From positions 1 through 64,000 of the IMG/VR virus record IMGVR_UViG_3300020183_000042: a DNA stretch of 64,000 nt. One strand, given 5' to 3'. The notes beneath the pieces are model-generated. The model saw only the letters and a program-made list of their open reading frames with translations. It did no database searches and was not told the DNA's origin. Positions 5,931-49,939 of this stretch are shown piece by piece. Source of the stretch: a virus (taxonomy: Duplodnaviria; Caudoviricetes). The first letter of the stretch is position 1. Every line of letters begins with the position of its first letter. A program made the position numbers and the translations under genes.

Positions 5931-6071
5931 TTATCTCCTATTGAGCATTATTAACGAAAATACCCCTAACACTACAACACTTTCAAATGATTGTTGTTGC
6001 ATATGGGGATTCTGAGTTATAAGACTATAAACATAAATACCTAATGAAATATAAAACGATATTAATATCAT
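5931..6071 (-). CDS. small membrane protein (46 aa, not in ORF track)
   Basis: MILISFYISLGIYVYSLITQ...VVVLGVFSLIMLNRR; ATGA overlap with the upstream stop; fills the gap exactly. Confidence 0.55.
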   Translation of the reverse strand: MILISFYISLGIYVYSLITQNPHMQQQSFESVVVLGVFSLIMLNRR

Positions 6072-6538
6072 AATACACCGCACAGTTGTTTCAGCCACGA
6101 AAGATTTGGTTCAACATATTCTATTTCTATACCACTCATACTAACAAAAGTATCAAATATTTTTTGAGCTTTTTCATCAAAAAGGTGTGTACCGTGATTG
6201 TTTGTCATAACTACTTTTCTAACTCCTTCTTGCCATAGAGCCATAATGCAATCGTTACACGATTGACCAGTAACATATGCTATTCCATTTTCTGGTCGTA
6301 TAGTACAATTAGATAGAGCATTACGTTCAGCGTGAATCATCCACGGATATTTGTCTGGTCTACTGTTTGGTAATAGAGTATCATCCAGGCCGCGAGGAAA
6401 TCCGTTGTATCCTAGTCCTAAAATCCTATTGTTAGAATCTGTTATTACACAACCATGTTGTGTTTGAACATCATGACTACGTTGAGAAATAACTTTAGCC
6501 AATCCTAAAAAATAATCTGTCCAGATGGGTCTGCTCAT
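6068..6538 (-). CDS. dCMP deaminase
   Basis: GYNGFPRG, IHAERNA, SCNDC zinc motifs. Confidence 0.9.
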   Translation of the reverse strand: MSRPIWTDYFLGLAKVISQRSHDVQTQHGCVITDSNNRILGLGYNGFPRGLDDTLLPNSRPDKYPWMIHAERNALSNCTIRPENGIAYVTGQSCNDCIMALWQEGVRKVVMTNNHGTHLFDEKAQKIFDTFVSMSGIEIEYVEPNLSWLKQLCGVL

Positions 6539-6544
6539 AGGAGT

Positions 6545-6572
6545 ATTATATCAGACCGTCCGTGTATGTCAA
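6545..6572 (-). promoter_or_regulatory. sigma70-type promoter TTGACA-N16-TATAAT, probably leaderless
   Basis: Perfect hexamers; the ATG follows 6 nt after the -10 box. Confidence 0.8.
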
Positions 6573-6573
6573 C

Positions 6574-6822
6574 TCACTTTGTTGTAAGTTTATTATATAG
6601 CACAAGACTTATAACGCCACCAGCAACGCCCATGATTAGTCCTGCTGGACTCAAACTGTTGTATTGGCCCAGCACATACAATATGGCGCCACCCATATAA
6701 GATCCTGCCACTCCTAATGCTACTGTTTTAACAAAACCAAAATTCTCTTCGCCAGGAACCAGAGTTTTGGCCACGCTACCAACGAATAAACCATAAACAC
6801 ACCAGACTAGTAAATTAAACAT
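6574..6822 (-). CDS. GlsB/YeaQ/YmgE (transglycosylase-associated) membrane protein
   Basis: GLFVGSVAKTLVPG...LGVAGSYMGG...GVAGG; three TM segments. Confidence 0.8.
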   Translation of the reverse strand: MFNLLVWCVYGLFVGSVAKTLVPGEENFGFVKTVALGVAGSYMGGAILYVLGQYNSLSPAGLIMGVAGGVISLVLYNKLTTK

Positions 6823-7204
6823 TTGATGTCTCCACTAAGGCTACTATTTCATCATCCTTGAGGTTTTCTCCATTATCGAACAATGCGCTCATTAATCTCG
6901 TACTATATTTATAATATTGTTCTTTTGACATATTTTCTCTTAGTATTCTTTTGATTCTTAATTTTGTAAACCAGCCCTTTCTAATAGAGTAGTTTTTGAT
7001 TTCTTTTCCGTACAAAGAATATTTGTCTTGTACTGTGCAATCTGACGATAGTTTATTTTTGTTGCATTCTTGTAATACTCTAATAAGGGTCAGTATAATA
7101 CTAATAACCATAAGAATAGCGATTACGCTTCCAAATCGTTCTTCTTCTGGAATATTAGCCTGTTTCATTACTCTTTCACCGATAATTTTTACTTTAGGAT
7201 TCAT
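6815..7204 (-). CDS. hypothetical membrane protein
   Basis: Single hydrophobic segment VIAILMVISIILTLI. Confidence 0.65.
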   Translation of the reverse strand: MNPKVKIIGERVMKQANIPEEERFGSVIAILMVISIILTLIRVLQECNKNKLSSDCTVQDKYSLYGKEIKNYSIRKGWFTKLRIKRILRENMSKEQYYKYSTRLMSALFDNGENLKDDEIVALVETSNV

Positions 7205-7512
7205 TTTTTTATTACCCTTGTTTTACAGTCTGGTTTGATAATTACTGGGGGGTGTGTGATTTCAGACGGAGCGTCACCGCTTTCTGGTTCACAATAACCA
7301 CACTCTACCCTTTTTATACCATCGCCACTAATATACCAACCCTTACCCTTACAAACAGGACATTCTTTTCTTTTATATTTCTTTACGTTTTCTGTTTGAT
7401 GAGACTTGATAATGCTGCCGACTACTGTAACAACACCTGTGGACGATCCGTTGTATCCATAGGCTCCGAATATGATGGATGTTAGCAGAAAGAAGGCGAC
7501 AACCTTATTCAT
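7201..7512 (-). CDS. exported protein with DnaJ-like zinc finger
   Basis: Signal-peptide-like MNKVVAFFLL; CPVCKGKG...CGYC. Confidence 0.6.
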   Translation of the reverse strand: MNKVVAFFLLTSIIFGAYGYNGSSTGVVTVVGSIIKSHQTENVKKYKRKECPVCKGKGWYISGDGIKRVECGYCEPESGDAPSEITHPPVIIKPDCKTRVIKK

Positions 7513-7651
7513 TTCTCTTTCTCCATCGTGGTCTTGGTTTGGGAGTATTATCACCCTTTGGACTTGGACTCCACAATTTAATAATCTTGTATAGAAAACC
7601 CAAGAACATTTGAATAGCGCGACCTAATGATATTCTATCAATGAGTTTCAT
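7505..7651 (-). CDS. small amphipathic/basic protein (48 aa, not in ORF track)
   Basis: MKLIDRISLGRAIQMFLGFLYKIIKLW...PRPRWRKRNE; ATGA overlap with the protease stop. Confidence 0.55.
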   Translation of the reverse strand: MKLIDRISLGRAIQMFLGFLYKIIKLWSPSPKGDNTPKPRPRWRKRNE

Positions 7652-9696
7652 AAGTATTTCTCGAAATCATAGGATGGAAGTTTTTGAACAGGAAAACCAT
7701 CAAAATTACTAAAAGCATAACTACCATTTTGAGCCAACATTTGACCAGCAACATCGGATCGAATTAAAAATGAGCCGTCTGGAATTGGACCCCATTCTGG
7801 ATGACCACCATCATTCCATTTACCCCAACTATTTTGCACAAGGAAAAGAGGCTCGTTTCCAGTATCATCACACGCTATCCAAGCCATACAATGAGCCCAA
7901 CTACCACTAACATTAGTTACACCGTTCTTATCTCGTTTATTACTAAAGCCAAAACTAGAGCATACGGATAGTCCATAACCATTAGCAAGAGCATCTCGCG
8001 CTTCTTCTACTGTGCGTACCAAACTTACTGTTTTTATTTGATGATCATTAGCCAGGTCTATTACTTTGTCTGGTAATCCTCGACCACCCCAGTTTGTGCC
8101 AATAGTGCTATTATATTTGGTAAAGTCTGCTATTCCCTTGTAGTCTTTACGAACCAGAATACCACCGTTTTTGCTCACAAATTCAGCCGCTCTGGCACAA
8201 CTCATTCCCTGACCACTATGACCTCTAGCACCATAAATAGCTTCTGTGGCACCGCGAGCTATCCAACCCTCTTTTTGTTTATGAATATCAATCTCTACTG
8301 ATCGACTAACATCACACGCATTTCGTGTTCCGTGTGAAACACAATTATGTGAAATTAATCCATTAGCTATAAAAGAATGGTCATGTTCTACATTAATACA
8401 ATAAACATTATCGGTATAGACTTCATTTGTAATTGTGGTAATTGGTGCTAGAAGTCCAAGGCTACAGGTTAACTTATTTTGTTTTACGTGTACTTTGGTC
8501 ATCACAGACAATTCTGGATATATTTTATATACTTGATCACCATATAAATCTATTTGATAAGCCTCTTTACTTCTGTTTCTTGGTTTTCTTTTGCTAATTG
8601 TGTGTTGAATTTGTAAAGAAATTAATATATCAGACATATCTTTTATTAAGACTTTAGAGACTGATACTCCGACAAGTTTGCGTCTTTTGTGGGTTGTAAC
8701 GCTGCCATCACCATCAGACCATCCTCTGAGGAAAGCTATTCTGTGATATCTAGAAGAATTTATTATTTCTCTATTTAAACCTTTTGACCATTGATTACCA
8801 TTTACAAAATAAGAAAATAATCTAGAAACAATAATATTTGAACATCTTACACAACATACATTTTTATCCACTCGATTCATTACCGTGCATTTTGCACCAA
8901 AAATATTGTTTAATAAATATACAATACGATCTCTGAGTTGTGTCTCTTTTATATGTAGATTAAATGTGATTCTTTCTTTATTATTGCCATCTATACCACC
9001 TTCAGCAGCATATAAACCTAAGAGCCACATTAAATCTGTAGATAGTCTAATAAATCTTGGTAAAGTATTTTTGCTACCTTTTATTCTGATATTTGTATCT
9101 GTTGTGTCGTGTTGTAAATTTGAAACATAAGTTAATAAATCTAAAATACGATCATCACTATTTAATGTTTCTTTTTTGGGTAAAACTAACAAATCTCCTT
9201 CTTTAAGATTTTTAGCTTCTATCCATTCATAACCACTATCATTAAAAACCAACATTTTGTGGTCATTAGTTATAGACAAGTTTTTGTCATATTTTTTAAT
9301 ATAGATATGATTGATTTGTCCCTCTGATGGTTTTTTGTTGATCAATTCATAAACCCTTTTAGATTTATTAGTATGGGTTATTACACTATCTCCAATTTTT
9401 ATATCTTCAATATTTTTGATTGAACCATCAGACATTAAGATTGTTGTGCCTTTAACTAAGCAATCTCCTGTTGTTTGTCTTTCGTTATAGGGACTCTTAT
9501 CAAACTTTAACACACTTTTGTATGGAGTACTTAGTTTGCCCTTACCACTATTCTTAATGTTTCTTGCTCCATCAGAGAAATAACTATATTTGGATTCTTC
9601 CATTAGATGATCAAATACATGCTGTTCCCAAAGACATCCACTAAAACCCTTCCTATAGTTGTTATATAAATCTGCTGAACTAAATCGTGGCATCAT
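7648..9696 (-). CDS. papain-like (C1) cysteine peptidase containing an intein
   Basis: After splicing: QTTGD|CVSH (oxyanion Gln and catalytic Cys), WAHCM (His), VQNSWG (Asn); about 309 aa. Confidence 0.85.
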   Translation of the reverse strand: MMPRFSSADLYNNYRKGFSGCLWEQHVFDHLMEESKYSYFSDGARNIKNSGKGKLSTPYKSVLKFDKSPYNERQTTGDCLVKGTTILMSDGSIKNIEDIKIGDSVITHTNKSKRVYELINKKPSEGQINHIYIKKYDKNLSITNDHKMLVFNDSGYEWIEAKNLKEGDLLVLPKKETLNSDDRILDLLTYVSNLQHDTTDTNIRIKGSKNTLPRFIRLSTDLMWLLGLYAAEGGIDGNNKERITFNLHIKETQLRDRIVYLLNNIFGAKCTVMNRVDKNVCCVRCSNIIVSRLFSYFVNGNQWSKGLNREIINSSRYHRIAFLRGWSDGDGSVTTHKRRKLVGVSVSKVLIKDMSDILISLQIQHTISKRKPRNRSKEAYQIDLYGDQVYKIYPELSVMTKVHVKQNKLTCSLGLLAPITTITNEVYTDNVYCINVEHDHSFIANGLISHNCVSHGTRNACDVSRSVEIDIHKQKEGWIARGATEAIYGARGHSGQGMSCARAAEFVSKNGGILVRKDYKGIADFTKYNSTIGTNWGGRGLPDKVIDLANDHQIKTVSLVRTVEEARDALANGYGLSVCSSFGFSNKRDKNGVTNVSGSWAHCMAWIACDDTGNEPLFLVQNSWGKWNDGGHPEWGPIPDGSFLIRSDVAGQMLAQNGSYAFSNFDGFPVQKLPSYDFEKYL
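8344..9462 (-). mobile_element. intein with LAGLIDADG homing endonuclease (373 aa)
   Basis: Starts CLVKGTTILMSDG; block B ITNDHK; LLGLYAAEG and FLRGWSDGDG motifs; ends HSFIANGLISHN followed by C+1. Confidence 0.93.
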
Positions 9697-10199
9697 TTGC
9701 TCCCTTCGTTACAAGCCCAAGCAAGAGCCTTAAAACTCTCCACAATTTTTGCTCTTAGATCCTTATCTAGAGGCACATTATCATCTCCAACACCAGCCAC
9801 AATAACAGCTTGTGCCGACTTTGCTAAGTCTGGATATTTACCTTTGATGTCCATTCGCAACATTGGACCAGCAAGACCGTTAGCATATCTAACCTCATCC
9901 GTATTCTTGATGACCATATCTTCACCATCTAATTCTATTAATCTAGCAATATCCATATATAGATTAGCTAATCTTTTACCATCTTGAGATCGTGATGATG
10001 GTCCGCTTTTTAAGGAATCTATTACCGGATCACATGCTTCTCGTAATTTGCTATCTGATGGTGGAGTTACCACAACTATTTCATCCACATTAATTCTACC
10101 ACCACTACCAATATTGCTAAAGTCTGGTTTAACCAGACCCACAAGAATTAAAACTGCTGCTAATACTAATAGTAAAACTTTATTATTCATTATTCTCAC
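9693..10199 (-). CDS. membrane-anchored/exported hypothetical protein
   Basis: N-terminal KVLLLVLAAVLILVGLV. Confidence 0.65.
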   Translation of the reverse strand: MRIMNNKVLLLVLAAVLILVGLVKPDFSNIGSGGRINVDEIVVVTPPSDSKLREACDPVIDSLKSGPSSRSQDGKRLANLYMDIARLIELDGEDMVIKNTDEVRYANGLAGPMLRMDIKGKYPDLAKSAQAVIVAGVGDDNVPLDKDLRAKIVESFKALAWACNEGSK

Positions 10200-10584
10200 C
10201 CTTACAAACTGTTGGACTTAGATATGGAAACATTTGATCGGCCACCTTTACTGCCTCAACGCAACAGCTTTTCACGGCCAGATCGCGCGTTTGCTTCCAA
10301 GATGCTACCAACTGGAAAAACACATCTTCGTTTGTTCTACTATTAGTGGTTACAACTGGAACAACATTAAACGTAGAAGAAGTACCAGATGGAGCAGAAT
10401 TTTTTCTAACACCACTCACTAAACCCTTAGCCTTGTCCACTAATGATAATACTAAATTTTGAACCGGACTTAATTTGTCCTTAAATAGAACCCAAAGGAC
10501 CAAACCCACACCAGCATATAAAGCCAGATCAATTGGCTTGACCGATCTTGAAAATTCTTCGAAACTTTGAGCATAATCTAACAT
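10183..10584 (-). CDS. hypothetical membrane protein
   Basis: TM segment LALYAGVGLVLWVLF. Confidence 0.65.
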   Translation of the reverse strand: MLDYAQSFEEFSRSVKPIDLALYAGVGLVLWVLFKDKLSPVQNLVLSLVDKAKGLVSGVRKNSAPSGTSSTFNVVPVVTTNSRTNEDVFFQLVASWKQTRDLAVKSCCVEAVKVADQMFPYLSPTVCKGENNE

Positions 10585-10967
10585 TATACGTTTCCTTTCT
10601 TTAAGAAAACACCAGTTTGTCTAAAAATTGTTACCATAGCATCTATTGAGGATGATACCATAATCATCAGAATAGATTTGATATACCTATGTATAATAGG
10701 TTCTATGAGATTTGGAACAAGAGGGATATCCACGATTAAAAAAACTTTATCGTAGAAACCGTTAATATATTCTATTGCTAGTTGTTTTTTCTCTGATCCA
10801 CTAAGATTATCCGCAACAGTCTCTATAATCTGAACCGTGCTAGCGGTTACTAATTGTAGAGCTTTCCACGCTTCACTTAGCGCTACGCTTTTTAGGTTGG
10901 TTAACGACTTTTTTAGTTCTTGGTGAAGTTTTTCGGCTTGTTCTAGAACTAGTTCTCGTGGATTCAT
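10584..10967 (-). CDS. hypothetical protein, possibly holin-like
   Basis: LSGSEKKQLA motif is reminiscent of small phage holin-like proteins; overlaps the upstream gene by 95 nt. Confidence 0.5.
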   Translation of the reverse strand: MNPRELVLEQAEKLHQELKKSLTNLKSVALSEAWKALQLVTASTVQIIETVADNLSGSEKKQLAIEYINGFYDKVFLIVDIPLVPNLIEPIIHRYIKSILMIMVSSSIDAMVTIFRQTGVFLKKGNV

Positions 10968-11205
10968 TTTTTTTCTTCTCCTCTTGTGCTATTTTTTTAA
11001 CTTCGTTTCTGCCTCTTATATATCTAGCCAATATCCAAACCTGACCACCAATTAGTATTACACTTTCCACAGCATGAGATACTACTGTGATTAATTCTTC
11101 TTTTTGTTCATTCTCTGTTAAAATACCAGTTAAATATAGTCCGCTAAATATGAAGCTTACTAGCGTAAACCAAAATTCACTTGTTTTATAGCCTGATTTG
11201 ATCAT
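10873..11205 (-). CDS. putative holin-like membrane protein
   Basis: KSGYKTSEFW N-terminus, two TM segments and a highly basic C-terminal tail. Confidence 0.5.
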   Translation of the reverse strand: MIKSGYKTSEFWFTLVSFIFSGLYLTGILTENEQKEELITVVSHAVESVILIGGQVWILARYIRGRNEVKKIAQEEKKKNESTRTSSRTSRKTSPRTKKVVNQPKKRSAK

Positions 11206-11211
11206 AATAAA

Positions 11212-12858
11212 TTAATTTGGCCAAAGAGAATTAAGATCATAACTTGCACTATCAGCAGTACCACCATCATTACTCAACGGACCCATATAATACACATTAG
11301 TTGCGCTACCACCAGTACTATGTTTAGAAAATCCATTAAATATAGCATCACCAGTAATATCTCCGGTATTAATACTCCAATCATCAAAATTAGCACTTCC
11401 ACCTATATTAGAGCTATTTACAGAGCTATCACTAAAAGACGCATCGTTATTAATAGTACCCCCGTTAGCACTCTGACCTTTAAAGAAAGCAAAATCTGAA
11501 CCTATAGTTCCAATATTGATTGCATAATCAGTCATAACCACATAACTACCATTGCTTATACTACAACCAGTGAGGATAAAGCTTCTATGGTGGAATATGG
11601 CTACTGATGAATAGCTTCCAAGAGTTAATGTTGAGTTATTAGCAATGTTTGAATCATCATAGAATTCTACAACACAACCATCAGGAACAGTTAAATTTGC
11701 ATGTAGTTTGGAACTATTAAAGAATTGAATCTTTTTCATAATGCTACTACTAAGAGTTGGCATACTATTAGCTCCAAAACTAACATCATTAAATACTTTA
11801 AGGGTTCCACAATAAATATTACCACTAAAACCATTACCAGTATTTGTACGAAATTCCACGGTAGTATATACATCTCCATTAATTGTGACACTACTGCCAT
11901 TACTTATATCACCATCAGTATTCATTATTAGTGTGCCGCCATACATATTAATATAAGAATTACTAGCAAAATAACTATCAGTATTGAGAGTTAATTTACT
12001 ATTTGGATAATCAGCCTCACTTGCTGAACTATATGAATAAAAGTAATTACTGCTACTACCTTCTATAATGCTGCCCTCATTAAGAGTAACATCATTATAA
12101 AAGTATACATTATCATCAATAATACAGCTATCGGTTAGGGTTACAGGTCCATAAAAGCCATATGGACTTCCAGGGCAATCCATGATTTTTACATTTTCAA
12201 ACAATTCTGTTTTTCCTAAAACCTTTACATATCGTATGGTTGTGGTGCTACTGCTGTTGCCCACAACTCTTAAGTCTCCTAATATTGTTACTGAGTATGA
12301 GCCATTACCATAAATAGGCTGATAATTACTATTTCCACCACTAGAAGTAACAACAACATTTCCTTCTATAGTTACAGATTGACTATTATTATCAATATAA
12401 CTAGTTTCGTGAAAATTCACATCACCATAAATGGTTGTGCTGCTACTAAAATATAGTTTACAATTATCATATAGATCTATTTGTACTCTGGTTCCAGTAC
12501 TACCAATAGTTCCATAACCCGCAAGTTGCCGACCATTTATAAGTATAATATGGCGTACTTCACTAATAGTATAGCCATTAAAACTATTGTTTAGGTCACC
12601 GTTATCAAAAATTATAGTATCAGCAATGAAACTACCACTATTACTACTAATATCACTTAAAATTACAGCAGTATCTTCATCAGTAGGTAAACTATCTGAT
12701 GATAGTGTATGATCTCTATCAACAAACCAATTACCCAAAGTGTTCCAGTCGTTATTAACAGCACTATAAAAATATAGAGTGCGGCCAACGCTCTGACCAT
12801 CACCACCAATGATCCTACCAGATGATTTTACTTCATTCGACCCATAATTAATTGCCAT
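11212..12858 (-). CDS. beta-helix repeat protein, probable tail fibre/spike
   Basis: S/G/N-rich; WNTLGNW motif; repeated G-I-GxAxFxDxSxN units. Confidence 0.6.
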   Translation of the reverse strand: MAINYGSNEVKSSGRIIGGDGQSVGRTLYFYSAVNNDWNTLGNWFVDRDHTLSSDSLPTDEDTAVILSDISSNSGSFIADTIIFDNGDLNNSFNGYTISEVRHIILINGRQLAGYGTIGSTGTRVQIDLYDNCKLYFSSSTTIYGDVNFHETSYIDNNSQSVTIEGNVVVTSSGGNSNYQPIYGNGSYSVTILGDLRVVGNSSSTTTIRYVKVLGKTELFENVKIMDCPGSPYGFYGPVTLTDSCIIDDNVYFYNDVTLNEGSIIEGSSSNYFYSYSSASEADYPNSKLTLNTDSYFASNSYINMYGGTLIMNTDGDISNGSSVTINGDVYTTVEFRTNTGNGFSGNIYCGTLKVFNDVSFGANSMPTLSSSIMKKIQFFNSSKLHANLTVPDGCVVEFYDDSNIANNSTLTLGSYSSVAIFHHRSFILTGCSISNGSYVVMTDYAINIGTIGSDFAFFKGQSANGGTINNDASFSDSSVNSSNIGGSANFDDWSINTGDITGDAIFNGFSKHSTGGSATNVYYMGPLSNDGGTADSASYDLNSLWPN

Positions 12859-12862
12859 ATTT

Positions 12863-13213
12863 TCAGCCCTCTGGAGTTGGTTCTGGAACGATTATGCTTA
12901 CGGTTCCATCATCATTCATTGTGAAATTTCCCACAACGCTAGATCCGATAGCTATACTTTGTGGTTTAACACTAGCTAATAATGCGCCCAATTTAGCATG
13001 AAGTTCAAAAACTTCTTTAGCATCACTTCCTAGTGCTTCGGCTATTTCGCTAGGTGATGCGGCGCCGTTTTGCCAAAAGGTTTTGGCCCCATCATTAAAA
13101 GCCTTAACCATATTTTGAAATGTAACCCTGGTTTGTCGTTTGATTCTCTCAGCAACTATATTTGCTGGTGGAACAGGATTGGGAACATTGTTGTTGTCTA
13201 GAACGCTCATCAT
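12863..13213 (-). CDS. hypothetical protein (fibre-associated)
   Basis: 116-aa ORF with GGAG RBS, between two fibre-like genes. Confidence 0.6.
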   Translation of the reverse strand: MMSVLDNNNVPNPVPPANIVAERIKRQTRVTFQNMVKAFNDGAKTFWQNGAASPSEIAEALGSDAKEVFELHAKLGALLASVKPQSIAIGSSVVGNFTMNDDGTVSIIVPEPTPEG

Positions 13214-13252
13214 ATCTCCTTTATTATTTAATACTTAATTAATTTGTTTCAA

Positions 13253-14980
13253 TTATGTAAAAGATAAAGACTGGACTCTTGAAATTTGTACGCTTGCTAC
13301 CCAGTATACAGTGCCACTAACACCACTAGAACCTTGATTAATCTGAATAACTAAACCACTACTACTAGTACTAATTTGAGCATCTGCTGTTGCAAAATTA
13401 CTATCTAAAAATGATTCTATAACTGGACTACCAACTAATGATACTATGCTGGAATATTTTTTTACACATCCACGAATAACGAATCCGGCACTATCACCAC
13501 TGTCAGGTTCTCGTCCGCTAATATGAATAGAAAATGTTGCTGTTGTATCGTCTATTGTTATAGTATCATCACTATTAGTAGGATAATTTAAATATAAACT
13601 ATTCGATCCATTACTACTAGTAGTACCCATTAGAACATATGATGAAAATCTAGCATCTCCATTAAGACTAAATTTACCATTAGCAAAACTCAATTCTTGA
13701 GGATCGCTAGCACTATTTTGTTTTCCTAAAATTATTTGACCGGTTCCATTTGGAGAGATAGTAATATCATTATTAGCACCATCCTCAATTGTTATACTTC
13801 CACTATTCGTTCCACTATTAGTATTAAGTATAAGATCTCCAGTTCCGTTTGTTGTGATAGTAGTGTTACTATTACTATCACCAACTCTTAAAGTATCCGC
13901 ATCAACTTGCACATCGCCAGTACCATTTGGGGCTAATATTAGATTACCATTGACGTTGGTGCTACTAATAGTATTATCATCAAGTTTAAGATTATCGATA
14001 GTAATAATTCCACTAACAGCCAGAGTCGTACCGTCAAATGTTGCGTTGCTTTCAGCATTTATGCCGCTACCGGTACCAGTTAATATTCTATTATCAGCAT
14101 TATTACTTATATCTAATCCAGATGGTGAGGCTATGTTAACATTATTAATGTATAGTTTACCATCATGAGTAAATCTAAATGAATTATCATATATTGCTGG
14201 TCCACCAGTAGATGTATTAACAATAAAATCTGATCCTAGATAATGCGTACCACTAACAGATGCTTGGCCTAAAATCCTTATCGTTCTATTATCCAATAGT
14301 CCACTAGGAGTTAATGTTCCATGAGGATTATAAGCATCTCCTCTAATATTAAATATTGTATCACCAACTTGAGATCCAGAAGGTGACGCTTGAGTTCCTC
14401 TAGCATTAAACATTATAATTCTGCTAGTGTGACGAAGTATTTGATCGCCTTGTTCTTCAAGAGTAAAGTCTTCACTATATGAATTTACACGCAACATTGG
14501 GCTGGTCTGATCGCCAACAAGAATTAATCCAGCGTTTCCAACTGGACAATCACAATCTATAACTAATCTATTAGGAGTATCATTATATGTTAAGCCATTA
14601 GATGGCTCTAGTTTACCAGTGCCACTATTATATACTAAAAATTCATCATTGCCTAAACCACTAATATCTATATCAGATATTGATGATAGTGGTATTCCAG
14701 TAGTACTAATTGTTAGAGTATCAGCATCATCATTGTAATATATATTTATACCAGTTCCAGCAACCATAAATCCCGACTCACCTATTAAGTCCTCAATTTC
14801 TTCTGGATCAATTGATACTCCATCATTAAAATAAGGTAAACTATTCCATGGAGTTGTACCATCACCTAATTTAAGTTTATTGGTATCAGTCTCAAATCCC
14901 GGCTCACCTAAAAATAATACTGGATTTCTTGTCGACCAATTAGAGGAGGTATCTCTGCGAAGTTGAATTTTTACTGGCAT
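13253..14980 (-). CDS. tail fibre-like protein with Mtd/hyaluronidase-type N-terminal domain
   Basis: IQLRRDTSSNW...GEPGFETDTNKLKLGDG; internal LxPNGTG repeats. Confidence 0.75.
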   Translation of the reverse strand: MPVKIQLRRDTSSNWSTRNPVLFLGEPGFETDTNKLKLGDGTTPWNSLPYFNDGVSIDPEEIEDLIGESGFMVAGTGINIYYNDDADTLTISTTGIPLSSISDIDISGLGNDEFLVYNSGTGKLEPSNGLTYNDTPNRLVIDCDCPVGNAGLILVGDQTSPMLRVNSYSEDFTLEEQGDQILRHTSRIIMFNARGTQASPSGSQVGDTIFNIRGDAYNPHGTLTPSGLLDNRTIRILGQASVSGTHYLGSDFIVNTSTGGPAIYDNSFRFTHDGKLYINNVNIASPSGLDISNNADNRILTGTGSGINAESNATFDGTTLAVSGIITIDNLKLDDNTISSTNVNGNLILAPNGTGDVQVDADTLRVGDSNSNTTITTNGTGDLILNTNSGTNSGSITIEDGANNDITISPNGTGQIILGKQNSASDPQELSFANGKFSLNGDARFSSYVLMGTTSSNGSNSLYLNYPTNSDDTITIDDTTATFSIHISGREPDSGDSAGFVIRGCVKKYSSIVSLVGSPVIESFLDSNFATADAQISTSSSGLVIQINQGSSGVSGTVYWVASVQISRVQSLSFT

Positions 14981-14997: not shown

Positions 14998-15225
14998 TTA
15001 AGCATTACCGCCATTTACACTATTAATAAAGATACCATTATAAAAACGGTATCCATACTTATCATCAATATCAGATAATATAGGAGTATTTAGCACATAA
15101 CGATCATAAACAATGGTGCCAGCATCCGGAAAACCGGTTCTAGCACAAGTTACAACCATTGTACCGTTTTTAATATTGTTAGCCGAAATTGCTTTGGTAA
15201 TATCTGTAAATGGTCTAGTAGCCAT
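14998..15225 (-). CDS. hypothetical protein
   Basis: GGAG RBS; 75 aa. Confidence 0.6.
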   Translation of the reverse strand: MATRPFTDITKAISANNIKNGTMVVTCARTGFPDAGTIVYDRYVLNTPILSDIDDKYGYRFYNGIFINSVNGGNA

Positions 15226-15278
15226 AAATGTCTCCGGTATAAGAATGTGTTAATATTTAATTTGATACACCACTATTA

Positions 15279-15596
15279 TTACTTATCTATACGTTCCTCA
15301 AGAGCTTCCAGGGTTTTACCCAGTGTGGCTATTTGAATTTTTAATTCTGTCATTACTTCTGTGTTTCGTTGCAAAGCACTAGCAAATGCCGCTTGAGTTT
15401 CTTTATTAGTAGCTAATCTTTCCATAATAAATTGACGATCTTGATTATATGGACTCTGTGTTTCTATCATATGAGCAACTTCCGTTTTAGTTGCCATATT
15501 GCGACCTATTGTTACCCAAAAACCAATCATTGTTACAATGATACCAATACTGGTTGTGGCAATATTTTCCCAAAAATGAATTATGGTTTCGCTCAT
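15279..15596 (-). CDS. membrane protein with coiled-coil tail
   Basis: Start trimmed to MSET (GGGAG RBS); one TM segment, then a heptad-like C-terminus. Confidence 0.65.
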   Translation of the reverse strand: MSETIIHFWENIATTSIGIIVTMIGFWVTIGRNMATKTEVAHMIETQSPYNQDRQFIMERLATNKETQAAFASALQRNTEVMTELKIQIATLGKTLEALEERIDK

Positions 15597-15609
15597 AGTT
15601 ATCTCCCAT

Positions 15610-15642
15610 AAAAAAAACCACCGCACCTTGCGGCACGATGGC
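15610..15642 (-). terminator. rho-independent terminator
   Basis: GCCATCGTGCC-GCAA-GGTGCGGTGGT stem with GNRA loop, followed by a U-tract. Confidence 0.8.
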
Positions 15643-15670
15643 TTATTGGTAATCGAAAACCTTTCAGATA

Positions 15671-16276
15671 TCAATAATTGGTTTTGGCTTTGTAGTTATC
15701 ATTATAAGGAACTGTTGATCCTCTCATATATGTTAGTTCGCCAGGAACAGTTTGACTAGGATTAGCAGCATCATCACTAGTACCATCCGCAGGCGGGCCG
15801 GTGCGGCTGAGGGCCCAAGGAATTATAGTTTGAGAAGCAGGGTATCCTGCGTCAAATTTTCCGGTATAACGATTGTATTTGTTTTCTCTTATTGCTTTGG
15901 TAAATAATACAGATTTTTGATTTTCTGCTCTATTGATACTACGAATAACATCCTTGTCATTACCCGGAGTTTTAATAGCATTATCTGAAACACCGGCTAA
16001 TACATCTGTAATTAAACTACTAATCGGTTTTACATTGTTGTAAGCAAATGTGCCAGCAGAAACAGCTTTACCAGCATAATCTTTTTGTGTAACACTATCT
16101 TCGACAACCTTGGAACCAAAAGCGTCAACAGTAGGTACAACTGTTTTTACACTCTCCATTTTATTGGATGTGATCGTACCGTTGGCTTTCATTGTACCAT
16201 CATTATTGTCTGCTTCAACAATATAACCATAGGGAGAAACCGTTGTTGCACTACCATTAATTTGAGCTGTGGCCAT
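15671..16276 (-). CDS. probable abundant virion protein
   Basis: A/T/S/G-rich; has its own RBS, an upstream GGTGTAT motif and a downstream terminator. Confidence 0.55.
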   Translation of the reverse strand: MATAQINGSATTVSPYGYIVEADNNDGTMKANGTITSNKMESVKTVVPTVDAFGSKVVEDSVTQKDYAGKAVSAGTFAYNNVKPISSLITDVLAGVSDNAIKTPGNDKDVIRSINRAENQKSVLFTKAIRENKYNRYTGKFDAGYPASQTIIPWALSRTGPPADGTSDDAANPSQTVPGELTYMRGSTVPYNDNYKAKTNY

Positions 16277-16329
16277 ATTTAACTCCATATATATTGGATA
16301 GATGTCTTATAAGACAAATACACCATATT

Positions 16330-16989
16330 TTATTTATGGGTCAGATTAAATTTTATGAAATTCTTTAGACTATTTAGTGAGTTGGTTCTAAAGCCAGATA
16401 GGCCAGATTTAGATAGTGTTGCAAAATGCTTCTCTAACCACATATTACCAGTACATAATATTTGAAGATTCTTCGAATTTTCATGCAAAAAGATAGATGC
16501 TAAGATATTATCGGCTAAATTATCTATAAAATATCCAGTAGATGGAAAAACCTGAATAACATTATTACTTTCTAATATTTCGCAAATTTTTTTTAAACAA
16601 TGGTGGTCGAACATGCGATATTCCAAAACATATCTAGCTTTGATACCCAAAGAACCACACAGCTCCGTACAACTTTTAACATCATCACGAATTTTATCAT
16701 ATTTTCGATTGGAAGCTAAATTTTGAGGCATAGAGATATCAACAATATTGGCTCCTGCTTTGTGAGATTGTTGTATAGCACATAAACGGGTTTTTAAATC
16801 AGAAATTCCCAGGGGATAATCTATTGAACAAGACAATTCTATATTTTCTGATAGACTAGCTTTAGTTGTTTTCACCAGATAATAGGGAACTGTTATGCTA
16901 TGAATATTGTATACACATAGTTCTTTAACCATATCTCTGGCTAAAGCGTCACTGGTTTCAGTATCTGTGATTGCAAAATCTATAAACAT
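16330..16989 (-). CDS. DeoC (deoxyribose-phosphate aldolase)-like protein, catalytically degenerate
   Basis: IDYPLG, GANIVD and PSTG (normally KTSTG). Confidence 0.7.
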   Translation of the reverse strand: MFIDFAITDTETSDALARDMVKELCVYNIHSITVPYYLVKTTKASLSENIELSCSIDYPLGISDLKTRLCAIQQSHKAGANIVDISMPQNLASNRKYDKIRDDVKSCTELCGSLGIKARYVLEYRMFDHHCLKKICEILESNNVIQVFPSTGYFIDNLADNILASIFLHENSKNLQILCTGNMWLEKHFATLSKSGLSGFRTNSLNSLKNFIKFNLTHK

Positions 16990-16990
16990 T

Positions 16991-17674
16991 TTATTTTTTC
17001 ATCAAGTTTTTGATATAGTCTATGTTTGGATATTTTTTACTACCTAAAATACCATCTGCAAAACCATAATCAACAGCTTCTTCTGCTGTAAGAATCCAAT
17101 CTCGTTTTGTCCCCAATTGAGTAACAATGTGTTTTCTAACCATTAATCTTTTCCAATTTTTTTCTTTACAAATCTTACTATTCATACACTTTTCTGTGAA
17201 TATATCAATCATCTTCTCGCTTTCTTTTTCGCTCCATTGAACCATGCTCAAGGCCGCTTTGTGTTCATTATCCACACTAATAGAACCATAATGAATAAGA
17301 AAATTAGTATTAGGAGTAAGTATCCTAAGATGGGCAGCCTGTAGTAATACGGTGCTACTAGATTCTACTTTAGCATTAGCAACAATTATAATTTTGCTTT
17401 TACTACTTTTGATAGTATCATATATACCTAAACAATCTTGCCAATCACCTCCCGGCATATGCATGTGAACTAATATTGGTTCTAAAGAAAGTAGATTCAG
17501 ATATCTTATATTTTTTTGAAATACTATTGCTGATCTATAATCCACACCAGATTCATTATCATCAGAAAAATAAGAATGTAAATATATTTCTCTATTTTCT
17601 ATATCAATATTATATGAATGTATATCGTTAAGCGAATTATTATTAGTATCTATTTTAGATTTATGACTCGTCAT
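16991..17674 (-). CDS. clpP: ClpP-family protease
   Basis: MPGG, VESSST (Ser), FLIHYG (His), RDWILTAEEAVDYGFADGI (Asp). Confidence 0.8.
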   Translation of the reverse strand: MTSHKSKIDTNNNSLNDIHSYNIDIENREIYLHSYFSDDNESGVDYRSAIVFQKNIRYLNLLSLEPILVHMHMPGGDWQDCLGIYDTIKSSKSKIIIVANAKVESSSTVLLQAAHLRILTPNTNFLIHYGSISVDNEHKAALSMVQWSEKESEKMIDIFTEKCMNSKICKEKNWKRLMVRKHIVTQLGTKRDWILTAEEAVDYGFADGILGSKKYPNIDYIKNLMKK

Positions 17675-20698: not shown

Positions 20699-21367
20699 TC
20701 ACCATGCTTTACAAGACCAATATCTTGCTTTCCATTTGGGTCCGGGATTATCACAATTATGTCTGGCTCTAAAACTTTTGCGTCTGGATGGTATATTCTT
20801 TTTGATCTTCATATTAGGATCACCAAAATTCACTTTCACAACATTACCTTTTTCATTTTTCACATAAACACTCATTTTTTTAGGACCACCAGGGGTTCTA
20901 AAGGGTTTATTTAAGGTAACTTTTCTACCTTGATATTCTGAAGCCTTACCTTGATAAACTAGGTATCTTTCATCTTTTTTATAGTTGCCCATTCTATCAT
21001 AATAAAATAATTCAAATGTTTTAGGATCCATATACTTATACTTGGCATCGCTGTCTAAATCAGACAGATCTATTATTTCCACTTCTTCTTCCATATCTAT
21101 ATATTCATTGCTTTCTGGAATAATAATATCCGATAAAGCAATTTCTTCTACAAAACCACAATCATCGCAATCGTTATATCCTATAGAAAATCCAAGAATT
21201 TCTAACACATTATTTAATAAGGAATTTTTTGATTTATTAGTTTGTCCTATACATATTGCGGCTCTTTGTTTAGAATCTGGATATTCTTTTTGCATGGTAT
21301 TATTGCCCATACAACGAGATATAAATTTTTGTTTATCTTCATTTTGATTTGGACTAGGAATTGGCAT
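20699..21367 (-). CDS. conserved phage protein
   Basis: MPIPSP...FISRCM...QRAAIC domain fused to an EYQGRKVTLNKPFR...SFRARHNC...ARYWSC domain. Confidence 0.7.
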   Translation of the reverse strand: MPIPSPNQNEDKQKFISRCMGNNTMQKEYPDSKQRAAICIGQTNKSKNSLLNNVLEILGFSIGYNDCDDCGFVEEIALSDIIIPESNEYIDMEEEVEIIDLSDLDSDAKYKYMDPKTFELFYYDRMGNYKKDERYLVYQGKASEYQGRKVTLNKPFRTPGGPKKMSVYVKNEKGNVVKVNFGDPNMKIKKNIPSRRKSFRARHNCDNPGPKWKARYWSCKAW

Positions 21368-22439
21368 GATAACTACCATTCTGTAATAGGGTTTCGTTAA
21401 TAATATTAGCAGTATTAGTCCAGCTATATTTCTGTGCTGTAGCCAATCCTCCTCGATTTGATCTGATGTTATTCTGATACACATATTTCATATAATGCAC
21501 AGTTTGTTCTAGTTGATCGTCTCCCAATTTGGCCCAATTACCTTGACCAAAAAACCATTTTCCATCATTAGCTGGTTCTGTTTCATCAACAGAAATTAAA
21601 AAAGCATTATTATCATTACAATATTCTGTATGAGCAGAATAGAAGGTCGTGATGATTGGTTTATCTAAAGCCATACTTTCCAGAATTTCATTGTTCCAGC
21701 CCTCTGCTCTAGATAGGAAAACACCACAATCGCACCTATATATAAATTCAGCCAAATGATATTGTGTGGGTAGTTTACTATATACTTTAATTTTATCTTT
21801 TAGTTTAGATTGTTCTACCAAATTTAGCCACTGATTAGTTTCTTCATCGTTTAAAAATGGGTTGTGAGGCAATAACCATAATTCTACATCGTCCTGTTCA
21901 TTAAATGATAAATCAAAAGCCTTTATTAGAAGATCGTGACCTTTTCTTAGTTCCCATTTGCCAATATGAAAAAATATATACTTATTATTATTGAATCTAA
22001 TTTTGGGTGGACTATTAAAGATTGTCAAATCAACCGCCAAAGGAGACACATAAATCGGAGTGTTTATACCGTTGTTCTCTAGTATTGTTTTACCCCATGT
22101 CGATGCTGTAAAAATAAAATCAGGATATTTTAAATGATGTTTTTCTCTATCTGTAAAAGTATCTAGTTCAAAAAATGGAAACGCATAATAATGCCCCTTA
22201 CCTATTCTGGAAGCAAGATCATGTTGGTGCCATATTTTTAAACACGGGGCATCATAATCGAATTCGCTACTATTTTTCAGATAATTTTGTACAATAGACT
22301 TATCTGTTTCTGAATTAACTTCGACATTTGTTCCTATAGGGAATAATGCTATATTATTATTGAGATTCTTCATAATGTTTAGTGAAGTAATCCCATACCC
22401 AGTACTATTAATTGTACAATTTAAATTAAGATTTTTCAT
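21354..22439 (-). CDS. GT4-family glycosyltransferase
   Basis: STGYG, GKWELRKG, SRAEGWNNEILESMA (EX7E). Confidence 0.85.
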   Translation of the reverse strand: MKNLNLNCTINSTGYGITSLNIMKNLNNNIALFPIGTNVEVNSETDKSIVQNYLKNSSEFDYDAPCLKIWHQHDLASRIGKGHYYAFPFFELDTFTDREKHHLKYPDFIFTASTWGKTILENNGINTPIYVSPLAVDLTIFNSPPKIRFNNNKYIFFHIGKWELRKGHDLLIKAFDLSFNEQDDVELWLLPHNPFLNDEETNQWLNLVEQSKLKDKIKVYSKLPTQYHLAEFIYRCDCGVFLSRAEGWNNEILESMALDKPIITTFYSAHTEYCNDNNAFLISVDETEPANDGKWFFGQGNWAKLGDDQLEQTVHYMKYVYQNNIRSNRGGLATAQKYSWTNTANIINETLLQNGSYHANS

Positions 22440-23529
22440 ATATTTTATTGTGAGTGTTGTTAACTTGAATGAATGTTGTTTTTTTACCAAAGTCTTTAAT
22501 TTTATTTGCTCCTATATATGTACAAGCACTACGAATGCCACCATAAATATCTTGTATAATTTCTGATACTAATCCTTTGTATGGTACAATAACAGATTTA
22601 CCTTCTGCTGTTCTATAATTTGCAACTCCATCATGGTGTTTATCCATAGCGTCTTTACTACTCATTCCATAGTATTTTAAGGACACTTTTCGCTTTATAT
22701 TATTATCTTGAGGATCTATTGGTTGCCAAGTTCCTAGACTAGCTTTATATTCATAAAACCATTCTCCTTCACATTCGTCGCATCCGGCAAACATACTTCC
22801 TAACATTACAAAATCACTATTCGCCCCAAACGCTTTACAAACATCTCCAACGGTTTTGCATCCTCCATCGCTGCAAATGTGTCCACCAAGACCATGAGCA
22901 GCGTCCGTACATTCCATCACAGCGCTCAGTTGAGGATATCCCACGCCCGTTTTTAAACGAGTGGTGCATACGCTACCTGACCCTATACCAACCTTGACTA
23001 TATCGGCCTTGCCGTGAATAATAAGTTCTTCCACCATTTCAGGCGTTACCACATTTCCTGCCATTATAATAATTTCTGGAAATAGTTTGCGAATATGTGC
23101 GGCTGTTTTCACAAATTGTTCGGTATATCCATTTGCAATATCCAAACACACATTGGGAATATAGCCTCTGCTAAGTTCTACGGTTTTAAAAACACGCTCT
23201 AGTTTTTCTATATCTTTTTTGGATGTGCCTGTTGAATACCAAATATAATCAGTTCGTTTAACAAATAAATTAACTAATACGTCTTCATCATAGTGTTTGT
23301 GTAAGCACGTTATCGCTTTATGAAGCGATAATGATTGCGCCATATTAATGGTTCCAACAGTATCCATGTTGGCCGCAACGATTGGAACACAACTTAGTTC
23401 TCGGGGACTATGAACAAATCTGAATGAACGATGTAGATCGACTTCTGATCGACTCTTTAATACTGAGCGTTTTGGTCGAATCAAAACATCATCGAAATCT
23501 AATTTGATTTCATTAATTATTTTTTGCAT
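22426..23529 (-). CDS. guaC: GMP reductase
   Basis: LDFDDVLIRPKRS, AANMDTVG, DIANGY, KVGIGSGSVCTTR, YYGMSS, RSACTYIGA. Confidence 0.93.
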   Translation of the reverse strand: MQKIINEIKLDFDDVLIRPKRSVLKSRSEVDLHRSFRFVHSPRELSCVPIVAANMDTVGTINMAQSLSLHKAITCLHKHYDEDVLVNLFVKRTDYIWYSTGTSKKDIEKLERVFKTVELSRGYIPNVCLDIANGYTEQFVKTAAHIRKLFPEIIIMAGNVVTPEMVEELIIHGKADIVKVGIGSGSVCTTRLKTGVGYPQLSAVMECTDAAHGLGGHICSDGGCKTVGDVCKAFGANSDFVMLGSMFAGCDECEGEWFYEYKASLGTWQPIDPQDNNIKRKVSLKYYGMSSKDAMDKHHDGVANYRTAEGKSVIVPYKGLVSEIIQDIYGGIRSACTYIGANKIKDFGKKTTFIQVNNTHNKIYEKS

Positions 23530-24052
23530 TGAAGAAATACCATCTATTGTGAGAATTTATTTCTGACCATGAATTAATATGTATTACATACTCTTTGACT
23601 TGATCCCACGAAGAAAATATCATTTCATGAGGAATAGTTCCAAATAGCCAATCTGGGGCGTGTAGCTTACCCTGCACCATATGTATGATAATAGGCTTTT
23701 TCTGTCTGTTGGCCCAAAAAATTTCTTCGTATGTGCCACACGGATGAATATCTAGATCTAAATTAACTATTAAAAAATCACTAATATCTACGAGTCTTAA
23801 GTCTACGGATCGTATAACTTTCATTAACTGGGACAGTTCATCATAGTTTTTTTCTAGTTTGAGTTTGATCTTGTGTTTATGGGTTTGTTCATCTTCTTGA
23901 CCAACAATAGTAGGTTTTTTAATAGGATTGAAAACAATGACTCCTAAATCTTGTAAGAACGGAGTAATATCATCTCTCCATCCACTCCCCCTATCATGAA
24001 CACGATCCATAGCGCCAGCTAAATAGACTCTTTGATTTTTTAAACGATTCAT
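23513..24052 (-). CDS. nucleoside 2-deoxyribosyltransferase-like protein
   Basis: VYLAGAM, WR, FNP, DL...SD, GTYEE. Confidence 0.7.
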   Translation of the reverse strand: MNRLKNQRVYLAGAMDRVHDRGSGWRDDITPFLQDLGVIVFNPIKKPTIVGQEDEQTHKHKIKLKLEKNYDELSQLMKVIRSVDLRLVDISDFLIVNLDLDIHPCGTYEEIFWANRQKKPIIIHMVQGKLHAPDWLFGTIPHEMIFSSWDQVKEYVIHINSWSEINSHNRWYFFNAKNN

Positions 24053-24055
24053 ATT

Positions 24056-24124
24056 TTACTTTTTAATCTGTTCCAAACCATTAAAGATACCAACTATTAT
24101 AGCTAAAGCAACTAGAATTGTCAT
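24056..24124 (-). CDS. possible 22-aa hydrophobic peptide
   Basis: MTILVALAIIVGIFNGLEQIKK; ATGA overlap; fills the gap. Confidence 0.35.
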   Translation of the reverse strand: MTILVALAIIVGIFNGLEQIKK

Positions 24125-24339
24125 GCGACACTCTCTATGTGTTCTGATGAAAGTAACATAGTTTGAGAGGGATTTAGAAAAAGATTAAAATTGTTATCTT
24201 TAGAAAATATATCGTGATGAAACATCACATGCTCACAATCATCTCCACTATAATTACCTATTAAAAAAAAATTAGTTTTATAGATCGCCATGCCTCCAAA
24301 TCCACTATTTATTCTAATCGGATCGGAACCGACCGGCAA
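24121..24339 (-). pseudogene. C-terminal fragment paralogous to the upstream glycosyltransferase
   Basis: NSGFGGMAIYKT...YSGDDCEHVMFH matches NSAFGGMTIYKT...YSGEDCEHVTFH of 24350-25204. Confidence 0.7.
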
Positions 24340-24349
24340 GATATGTGTT

Positions 24350-25833: not shown

Positions 25834-25886
25834 TATAATTCTTTTATATATGGGCCTGACAGTTAAATTGTAGTATCTGTAGAAGT

Positions 25887-44836: not shown

Positions 44837-44863
44837 TATTTTTCTCCTTGTTTACCTGTGAAA

Positions 44864-47497: not shown

Positions 47498-47529
47498 TTG
47501 TATTCTCCAAGGTTTCCTGTGATGCTCGT

Positions 47530-47557
47530 AGTATACATCGTCATTCCGCGTTGTCAA
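47530..47557 (-). promoter_or_regulatory. promoter TTGACA-N16-TATACT
   Basis: Directly upstream of rIIA. Confidence 0.75.
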
Positions 47558-47799
47558 CCTTGATTTTTCTTTTGATTCACTCGTTGAATACTGATGTAAC
47601 CAAAATAGATTGGTATTAATCCTATATACCATACTGGTAAGGCTAGAGAAGCAAACCAAAGTCCACTAACGATTGATAGTGCTGATAATATATAAACTAT
47701 AAAAGATGGAAAATTTAACCTTGAGGTTAAGTATGCTAGCGGTCCAATCAAAATAGTTACTAAAACTATTAACGATGCTGCTAACGCTAAACTAGCCAT
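47554..47799 (-). CDS. small multi-TM membrane protein
   Basis: Three hydrophobic segments. Confidence 0.65.
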   Translation of the reverse strand: MASLALAASLIVLVTILIGPLAYLTSRLNFPSFIVYILSALSIVSGLWFASLALPVWYIGLIPIYFGYISIQRVNQKKNQG

Positions 47800-49935: not shown

Positions 49936-49939
49936 AAAT

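Follow-up and report, generated by a model that had tools for sequence, protein, structure and literature searches.

Phage endolysin families are split into soluble and signal-anchor-release (SAR) enzymes, and phages cut peptidoglycan peptides with CHAP and NlpC/P60 proteins (clan CA), which are papain-like Cys-His enzymes. Class 1 LAGLIDADG inteins are known in phage polymerase, helicase, ribonucleotide reductase (RNR) and terminase genes, and both membrane-bound DnaJ-like zinc-finger disulfide isomerases and extracytoplasmic CPPC thiol-disulfide oxidoreductases exist. Here we compare with these systems a gene module at positions 6574–11205 of IMG/VR record IMGVR_UViG_3300020183_000042, which is built around a papain-like (C1-type) cysteine peptidase whose gene is interrupted by an intein. 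The window, i.e. the whole stretch of DNA analysed (64,000 nucleotides, nt), is the first 64 kb of an 84,735-bp viral contig (completeness 61% according to CheckV; GC content 35%). The phage is large and uncultured and comes from lake water, its sequence being present in lake-water metagenome runs.

We read the locus as a conserved, late-transcribed envelope module whose most likely job is host lysis, with the C1-like peptidase replacing a peptidoglycan hydrolase, and assign this reading a probability of roughly 45%. The module resembles holin-endolysin(-spanin) cassettes in that a late operon ends with a signal-less enzyme next to small membrane proteins, one of these neighbours having two transmembrane segments and a basic tail and another showing weak similarity to a holin family. 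It differs from them in that the enzyme is outside the known muralytic families and far more conserved than typical endolysins, a spanin was not found and membrane proteins are many more. Relatives in which the peptidase stands behind an N-terminal membrane anchor recall SAR endolysins. All nine open reading frames (ORFs) listed in a preliminary description of this DNA are present on the minus strand, and adjacent genes overlap or abut, in keeping with the tight coupling described there:

g9, 10873–11205, minus strand: 110 amino acids (aa), two transmembrane-like segments, an acidic loop and a strongly basic C-terminal tail (net +12)
g8, 10584–10967, minus strand: 127 aa, N-terminal half amphipathic, C-terminal half hydrophobic; overlaps g9 by 95 nt
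g7, 10183–10584, minus strand: 133 aa, a single transmembrane-like segment and a conserved Cys-containing C-terminal domain
g6, 9693–10199, minus strand: 168-aa signal-anchor protein with a helical-bundle domain
g5, whole ORF, 7648–9696, minus strand: 682 aa, made up of extein, intein and extein
g5 N-extein, 9463–9696, minus strand: 78 aa, likely start at 9693; prosegment-like, ends Gln73...Gly-Asp
g5 intein, 8344–9462, minus strand: 373 aa, residues 79–451 of the ORF
g5 C-extein, 7651–8343, minus strand: 231 aa, papain-fold catalytic body whose first residue is the catalytic Cys
g4, 7505–7651, minus strand: 48-aa ORF
g3, 7201–7554, minus strand: hydrophobic N-terminus followed by a DnaJ-like Zn-ribbon; conserved MNK start at about 7512
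g2, 6815–7204, minus strand: 129 aa, a single transmembrane-like segment
g1, 6574–6822, minus strand: 82-aa small membrane protein of the GlsB/YeaQ/YmgE type

The preliminary description had recognised a C1 peptidase in g5, and a papain fold with its catalytic set is indeed present, but it overlooked the intein that interrupts the ORF. Strong Pfam matches of the 682-aa ORF were only to intein and homing-endonuclease families (PF14890 Intein_splicing, E = 7.8e-16; PF14528 LAGLIDADG_3, E = 7e-13; PF05203 Hom_end_hint, E = 3e-9). The intein starts with CLVKG, ends with SHN followed by Cys, and contains a TxxH-like block B (TNDH) and two LAGLIDADG_3 stretches. Like class 1 LAGLIDADG inteins it has an N-terminal Cys (Cys1), Hint blocks including the TNDH block B, two dodecapeptide motifs and a C-terminal His-Asn followed by Cys+1, and like them it interrupts a highly conserved protein at a catalytic residue and is missing from close alleles. 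Its splicing and endonuclease motifs look intact, and both activities may be present. Without the intein the mature enzyme has 308 aa, the insertion lying between Asp77 and Cys78. An intein-free protein with 97% identity (P0001) reads NERQTTGDCVSHGTRNA uninterrupted across the junction, and because P0001 is continuous there, the insertion point is exact and the +1 Cys is residue 78. Neither P0001 nor any of 80 related loci matched the intein, and the same intein allele was found in about 22 protein clusters. Contigs of other lake-water runs span the junctions of the intein with either extein, which rules out an artefact of assembly; in four such runs no contig skipped the intein, and as contigs drop rare variants, an intein-free allele is possible there. 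As judged from the sequence, the precursor has no contiguous active site, and only protein splicing would join Gln73...Asp77 to Cys78. It would be a clean case of an active-site nucleophile that doubles as the +1 residue of an intein.

A search with the C-extein found 1158 proteins; among the best 120 of these, nearly all were 305–309 aa long and 81–97% identical, and the precomputed Pfam field was blank in all 120. PF00112 (Peptidase_C1) stayed below threshold when the C-extein alone was scanned (E = 0.014, 15.9 versus 20.7 bits). Across 50 aligned intein-free homologues, the most distant at 30% identity, C78, H228 and W250 were invariant and Q73 (49/50) and N248 (45/50) nearly so, with the catalytic order Gln-Cys-His-Asn and the Asn-Ser-Trp motif present. 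The AlphaFold2 model of P0001 (predicted local distance difference test (pLDDT) 93, predicted template modelling score 0.92) gave 249 Foldseek matches in the PDB at E ≤ 0.001, with TM-scores of 0.45–0.62; the top matches were xylellain (3ois, E = 3e-9), procathepsins B, K and L, and papain, and the alignments to zymogens extended over the g5 N-extein. The enzyme thus shares with the papain family (MEROPS C1) the fold, the ordered Gln-Cys-His-Asn(-Ser-Trp) set and an N-terminal segment that aligns with zymogen prosegments. It differs from that family in its modest TM-scores and sub-threshold Pfam score, in lacking a signal peptide and conserved disulfide cysteines, in being phage-encoded with g6 as a dedicated membrane partner and a Zn-ribbon or thioredoxin partner, and in the inteins found in 46 of 150 family representatives. 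Alignment and model together place the peptidase in the papain family, as a divergent and uncurated lineage whose active site is intact. In contrast to CHAP and NlpC/P60, its predicted fold matches C1A proteases, with an extra Gln oxyanion residue and the Asn-Ser-Trp motif, and neither of those two families was detectable in the contig or the relatives searched.

To describe inteins across the family, the best 150 of 1443 representative clusters (50% identity) were surveyed. Insertions of at least 100 aa were present in 46 of the 150 representatives, 37 of the insertions being at the Cys78 site and 16 near other catalytic residues, and eight proteins had two inteins. Eleven of these 16 were located directly after His228 (H/C...HN/C, slashes marking the junctions), one two residues beyond, and four after Asn248-Ser-Trp-Gly. 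All three catalytic positions (Cys78, His228 and Asn248) are therefore intein sites. The C1-type peptidase as host protein and three sites within one family, beside Cys78, His228 and Asn248, set these elements apart from the class 1 LAGLIDADG inteins described in phages, and the titles and abstract starts returned by full-text literature searches contained no description of an intein in a phage cysteine peptidase. Whatever its function, the peptidase would be a novel host protein for inteins, which enter it at three places, the catalytic Cys, His and Asn.

The conservation of the module was determined by tblastn searches with the window proteins in a close set of 80 IMG/VR loci found with P0001, many of which end at contig ends, so that all counts are lower bounds. 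Both g5 and g6 were found in 80/80 loci, g7 in 78/80, g8 and g9 in 76/80 each, g3 in 74/80, and g1 and g2 in 72/80 each, and the order g9-g8-g7-g6-g5-g3-g2-g1 was identical in 16 of the 16 loci printed. Synteny among related phages, a check proposed in the preliminary description, thus held for g1–g3 and g6–g9 (72–80 of 80 loci), and conservation of the block, as judged from these comparisons, is far beyond chance. Median identity was 81% for the peptidase, 77% for g1 and 53–56% for g2, g3, g6, g7, g8 and g9. The following features adjoin the module:

sigma-70-type promoter, 6545–6572, minus strand: TTGACA, 16 nt, TG, TATAAT; 12/12 matches
tail-fibre island, 11212–14980, minus strand: fibre-like proteins of 548 and 575 aa and a 116-aa ORF; Mtd_N and tail-fibre PHROG matches
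y_15279, 15282–15596, minus strand: about 105 aa, an N-terminal transmembrane segment and a C-terminal coiled coil
y_15671, 15671–16288, minus strand: 205-aa soluble protein of unknown family
y_16330, 16330–16989, minus strand: unknown family, syntenic with the module
ClpP-like protease, 16991–17674, minus strand: syntenic with the module; phrog_94 'head maturation protease' (1e-21), PF00574 (8e-16)

The module had been described as lying directly after the tail-fibre genes, which is true of this window, where 7 nt separate the tail-fibre stop from the g9 start and the N-terminus of the 575-aa fibre carries an Mtd_N domain (PF18454, 4.6e-16), but not of its relatives. Genes of the island were found in 5–21 of the 80 related loci (fibre genes in 12–21), and in L009, L017 and L019, for example, no fibre island separates y_15279 from g9; related genomes carry other genes at this place or none. 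Since g9 directly follows y_15279 in several relatives, the fibre genes form a variable island inside the block and do not belong to the conserved module. The gene on the far side of the island, y_15279, is probably a module member (44/80 loci, median identity 79%), and y_15671, which had no Pfam or PHROG match, was found in 43/80. On the other side, the extended sigma-70 promoter lies directly 3' of g1 and ahead of a unit encoding dCMP deaminase and RNR, and marks the downstream border of the module. One of the nine genes of the preliminary description did not stand: g4 had a tblastn match in 11 of 80 related loci (median identity 43%), the gap between g5 and g3 holds inserts of 0.1–2.5 kb in relatives, making the g4 spot a variable insertion point, and g4 is probably not a real gene.

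A distant set was obtained by scanning with more divergent family members, from which 80 loci of 361 viral stretches were kept, and was analysed with profile searches. In this clade, in which peptidase identity was 43–50%, we found y_15671 in 64/80 loci, g6 in 62/80, g2 in 45/80 and g7 in 20/80. The order here is peptidase, Zn-ribbon or thioredoxin protein, g2, g7 and g6, and the block adjoins genes for a sigma factor, RNR and dCMP deaminase; genes for ClpP, dCMP deaminase and RNR flank the module in both clades. Among loci from prokaryotic metagenome-assembled genomes (MAGs), a g6 homologue was located beside the peptidase in 18 of 25. Two complete 200-kb relatives have a second, divergent peptidase copy about 5 kb from the main one (G008:C1:156245–157495 and G009:C1:183082–184224); it is a two-piece match within a 531-aa open frame and may also be interrupted.

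The gene most closely linked to the peptidase is g6. Its stop and the start of g5 share AAATGATG, which is preceded by a GGGAG Shine-Dalgarno-like site, and the two genes are thus predicted to be translationally coupled. The AlphaFold2 model of g6 (pLDDT 84) has a transmembrane helix (residues 6–23) and a helical domain (residues 50–167); it matched nothing in the PDB at E < 1 with Foldseek, and a protein search with g6 gave no usable match. A complex prediction of the peptidase with the soluble domain of g6 (residues 40–168) scored 0.00, which is uninformative either way. At least 14 of the 150 family representatives carry an N-terminal hydrophobic anchor and about 200 extra residues, and the hidden Markov model of g6 matched seven of these. 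The fused N-terminal extensions end with ...AWA..E.., resembling the C-terminus of g6, and both they and g6 have an acidic, Gly/Pro-rich linker after the membrane anchor; a Pfam scan of ten fused members found no family at E ≤ 0.001. A twin-arginine-like signal is present at the start of two family members. At the other end, two proteins (P0152 and P0160) and the 913-aa protein of locus L108 have a C-terminal CxxC...C Zn-ribbon like that of g3, and four (P0170, P0199, P0202 and P0232) a C-terminal CPPC thioredoxin-like domain, while in locus L132 the gene after the peptidase encodes a Zn-ribbon together with a thioredoxin domain (phrog_22, 1.8e-4). In L108, a 48.5-kb viral contig (6992–9733, 9746–10732 and 11272–13953), the 913-aa protein unites a transmembrane anchor, a g6 domain, a peptidase interrupted at its Cys site by an intein, and the Zn-ribbon. 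The gene following it encodes a lipoprotein with a lipobox (FVGC), and the next one an AAA ATPase that is apparently interrupted by an intein.

These fusions would link g6 and the peptidase to each other and to a domain of redox type, and the pattern of fusions and neighbours provides a ready hypothesis for g6, g3 and g2/g7, all proteins of unknown function. The exported Zn-finger protein of the preliminary description is g3, in which the conserved Zn-ribbon CPVCKGKGW...CGYCE follows the N-terminal hydrophobic segment (sidedness predicted). Like the DnaJ-like zinc-finger disulfide isomerases and CPPC oxidoreductases, it combines an anchor with a CxxCxGxG Zn-ribbon, which relatives replace or extend with a CPPC thioredoxin-like domain; unlike them, it has family matches that are sub-threshold only, and its redox activity and sidedness are putative.

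The remaining small proteins fit their earlier descriptions to different degrees. The two hydrophobic segments and the +12 tail of g9 agree with a holin-like protein and give it the architecture of a class II holin; its best family match was weak (Saf_2TM, E = 0.0012), and its family alignment has a conserved core and a variable tail. The second, overlapping holin-like ORF, g8, does overlap g9, but its similarity to holin families is weak and below threshold (phrog_6918 'holin', E = 3e-4; PF09682 Holin_LLH, E = 0.02, 15.7 bits versus a cut-off of 24.9). In a set of 110 proteins holding 22 g8 homologues, phrog_6918 matched 13 (best 1.1e-6) and PF09682 six (best 2.2e-4). The GlsB/YeaQ assignment of g1 was borne out by a match to PF04226 (Transgly_assoc/GlsB-YeaQ) with a small margin (E = 1.5e-5, 25.5 bits versus a cut-off of 25.3), and g6, g7 and g2 each have the one transmembrane-like segment ascribed to them. 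Flanking charges were counted as a crude guide to topology, which is not a topology prediction: an excess of Lys and Arg on the C-flank over the N-flank in 53 of 55 g7 sequences gives an N-out/C-in pattern, y_15279 has a clear pattern of the same kind with its coil on the cytoplasmic side, the pattern of g2 likewise puts its C-terminal domain in the cytoplasm, and the g6 family and the fused peptidases lean towards N-in/C-out.

The preliminary description had proposed a lysis cassette in which a protease takes the place of the endolysin, having recognised no muramidase or amidase. In agreement with this, none of 16 Pfam families of peptidoglycan hydrolases or peptidoglycan-binding domains matched in the 84.7-kb contig, and extending the search for a canonical endolysin to complete close relatives gave the same result (two relatives for PF00959; four for PF01510, PF13539, PF00182, PF01551, PF00877, PF05257 and PF01183; nine for the other eight families). 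PF00959, PF01510 and PF01464 were also unmatched in two complete genomes of the distant clade, and as positive controls ClpP was detected in 5/5 records and the peptidase in 14/14. Some viral structure neighbours of the peptidase model are C1-like domains of proteins that bear the names 'Peptidoglycan binding-like' and 'N acetylmuramidase (fragment)', and the module is co-oriented with, and abuts, the late tail-fibre genes. If the proposal is right, g9, with its two transmembrane segments and basic tail, and the Holin_LLH-like g8 would permeabilise the inner membrane late in infection, and the spliced peptidase would then get into the periplasm and work with g6 as its dock or adaptor. The Zn-ribbon protein g3 would be the redox partner of the peptidase, maintaining its one essential thiol in the reduced form. 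The enzyme would cleave peptide bonds in the wall itself or in envelope proteins that anchor the wall, and g7, g2, g1 and y_15279 would have accessory roles in the membrane, possibly in timing or at the outer membrane.

The proposal of a lysis cassette was thus upheld in its synteny and in the lack of a detected hydrolase family, but not in all of its parts, and several observations weigh against it. Missing endolysin families amount to an argument from silence, and the controls for PF00182, PF05838 and PF11860 matched nowhere. The search for a spanin covered 6400–11300 and 15200–16400 and detected no ORF in which a lipobox follows a signal. To our knowledge no peptidase of the C1 family is muralytic, and none of the titles and abstract starts returned by a full-text literature search described a C1-family endolysin. 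Cys78 is the sole conserved cysteine of the peptidase family, and there are therefore no conserved structural disulfides as in exported papains. The conservation of the peptidase (median 81%), far above the 53–56% of its neighbours, and the presence of inteins at three catalytic positions are both unusual for endolysins, and eight or nine membrane proteins exceed the needs of a lysis cassette. In the distant clade, g9, g8, g3 and g1 were each detected in just 4 of the 80 loci that keep the peptidase, which may reflect either the divergence of small membrane proteins or true absence. Finally, in a prophage on a 922-kb Thermoguttaceae-MAG contig (L099, 2749–8598), a g6-like/peptidase pair is located between genes for a capsid (PF25209, 1e-45) and a cement protein (PF09956, 1.5e-21), and on other contigs the peptidase/g6 pair lies beside an S8 subtilase. 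The L099 pair adjoins an IS66 transposase, and the region is possibly rearranged. A 141-aa protein of locus L112 was set aside as a spanin candidate, its match to 'Rz-like spanin' (E = 0.007) being too weak to use.

Some of these observations would suit a non-lytic envelope protease complex, in which the tethered peptidase, together with g6, g2, g7 and the redox partner, would act on host proteins of the periplasm, membrane or surface, either processing or destroying them, lysis being brought about by something else; its purpose could be receptor removal or superinfection exclusion, envelope remodelling or the maturation of phage membrane proteins. The widely kept core consists of the peptidase, g6, g2, g7 and y_15671, no holin-like genes being detectable alongside it in the distant clade, and the genomic contexts are varied. 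The very high conservation and the catalytic-site inteins are what would be expected of an enzyme with a precise protein substrate, and the signal anchors on the fused forms together with the two twin-arginine-like signals indicate action outside the cytoplasm. We nevertheless consider this explanation less likely than lysis for the phage described here, as its enzyme has no export signal and would therefore need membrane holes to reach the presumed side of g6, the gene lies beside holin-like genes where a late operon ends, and no alternative lysis enzyme was found in up to nine complete close relatives.

It is improbable that the enzyme acts on the cytoplasmic face, in taking over the host or in recycling amino acids, tethered by g6 to the inner membrane and forming a metabolic module with ClpP and the nucleotide genes. 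The flanking of the module by ClpP, dCMP deaminase and RNR genes here and in the distant clade would fit such a role, but the separate sigma-70 promoter sets the nucleotide genes apart. Likewise, the lack of a signal peptide and of conserved disulfide cysteines and the charge patterns that place the C-terminal domains of g7, g2 and y_15279 in the cytoplasm have to be set against the N-in/C-out charge bias of g6 and the fused forms, the twin-arginine-like signals in two family members, and the CPPC thioredoxin-like partners, which resemble extracytoplasmic reductases. Equally improbable is a role in morphogenesis or in the virion, in which the protease would process proteins of the capsid or of other parts of the particle and the membrane proteins would be assembly factors or merely unrelated neighbours. 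Membrane anchors with acidic, Gly/Pro-rich linkers and Zn-ribbon or thioredoxin partners are atypical of virion proteases, genes for capsid, portal or terminase are not found close to the module within the window, and the L099 region between capsid and cement-protein genes that would speak for it, as would the ClpP-like 'head maturation protease' upstream in the same conserved block and a strong conservation typical of core genes, lies beside a transposase and may be rearranged.

Extending the preferred reading of host lysis, we tentatively put forward that a widespread, undescribed system for lysis or envelope attack may exist, consisting of a papain-fold protease, the membrane adaptor g6 and a thiol-protecting Zn-ribbon or thioredoxin protein, which would replace peptidoglycan hydrolases altogether in several large aquatic phage lineages, some of them seemingly tied to Planctomycetota-type hosts. 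The essentiality and conservation of the enzyme would have let inteins colonise all three catalytic positions, and in the present phage its activity would depend on splicing. If this is true, the system would be a broad exception to the rule that tailed phages lyse their hosts with a peptidoglycan hydrolase, represent a new enzyme class for envelope degradation and explain the lack of an annotatable endolysin in these abundant lake phages; the family is large, with 1443 representative clusters (50% identity), and is encoded on viral contigs that number in the hundreds.

A host with a protein-rich envelope, for example a member of the Planctomycetota, had been suggested for this phage; the suggestion is not supported for the phage itself, whose GC content is 35% and which has no DUF1559 gene, and signals for Planctomycetota come only from distant relatives. 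Among the MAG loci with the peptidase, 10 of 25 were labelled Planctomycetota, two of them on contigs of 0.9 and 5.5 Mb. Two phage records of the distant clade (GC 34–36%) encode DUF1559/PF07596 proteins with prepilin-type N-termini, namely L189 (G013:C1:142742–143566, E = 2e-51) and L190 (G010:C1:75412–76365, E = 3e-44), and none was found in records G000–G009. The DUF1559 family is typical of Planctomycetota and their allies, and these two genes hint at hosts from among them. The closest MAG-binned contigs were labelled 'bacterium', Flavobacteriales and Alphaproteobacteria, the binning of phage contigs being unreliable. A tmRNA gene of the window (54616–54972, minus strand; Rfam RF00023, 103 bits) encodes the tag peptide GNNQLALAA, which resembles Bacteroidota-type tags and is a possible host lead.

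The long ORFs of the window are all on the minus strand and include, besides the RNR and dCMP deaminase genes, one for a sigma-70 region-4 protein. Despite genes for rIIA, rIIB, a clamp loader and an ATP-dependent ligase (43970–47659, 42055–42966 and 52178–53497, all on the minus strand), the label T4-like was not adopted: a search of 10 related records for the T4-type Gp23 capsid family had no match, its control being silent too. The T4 late-promoter motif TATAAATA was not enriched (8 observed versus 18.5 expected). A reading of the phage as a pelagimyophage was dropped; the words lysis, endolysin, holin, peptidase and cysteine are all missing from the pelagimyophage paper PMC7029224. Neither the C-extein (tblastn) nor region 6000–13000 (megablast) had a match among 50,697 phage records, a set that possibly lacks near-identical records. 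At about 20699–28134 (minus strand) the window contains a sugar-modification gene cluster encoding a glycosyltransferase (phrog_2170, 2e-22), a dehydrogenase (phrog_9582, 1e-105) and an aminotransferase (phrog_3139, 6e-48). Genes for tRNA-Leu(TAA) and tRNA-Ile(TAT) are located at 49862–49936 and 55591–55665, and six further tRNAs are encoded in the remainder of the contig (L081, 10852–16409).

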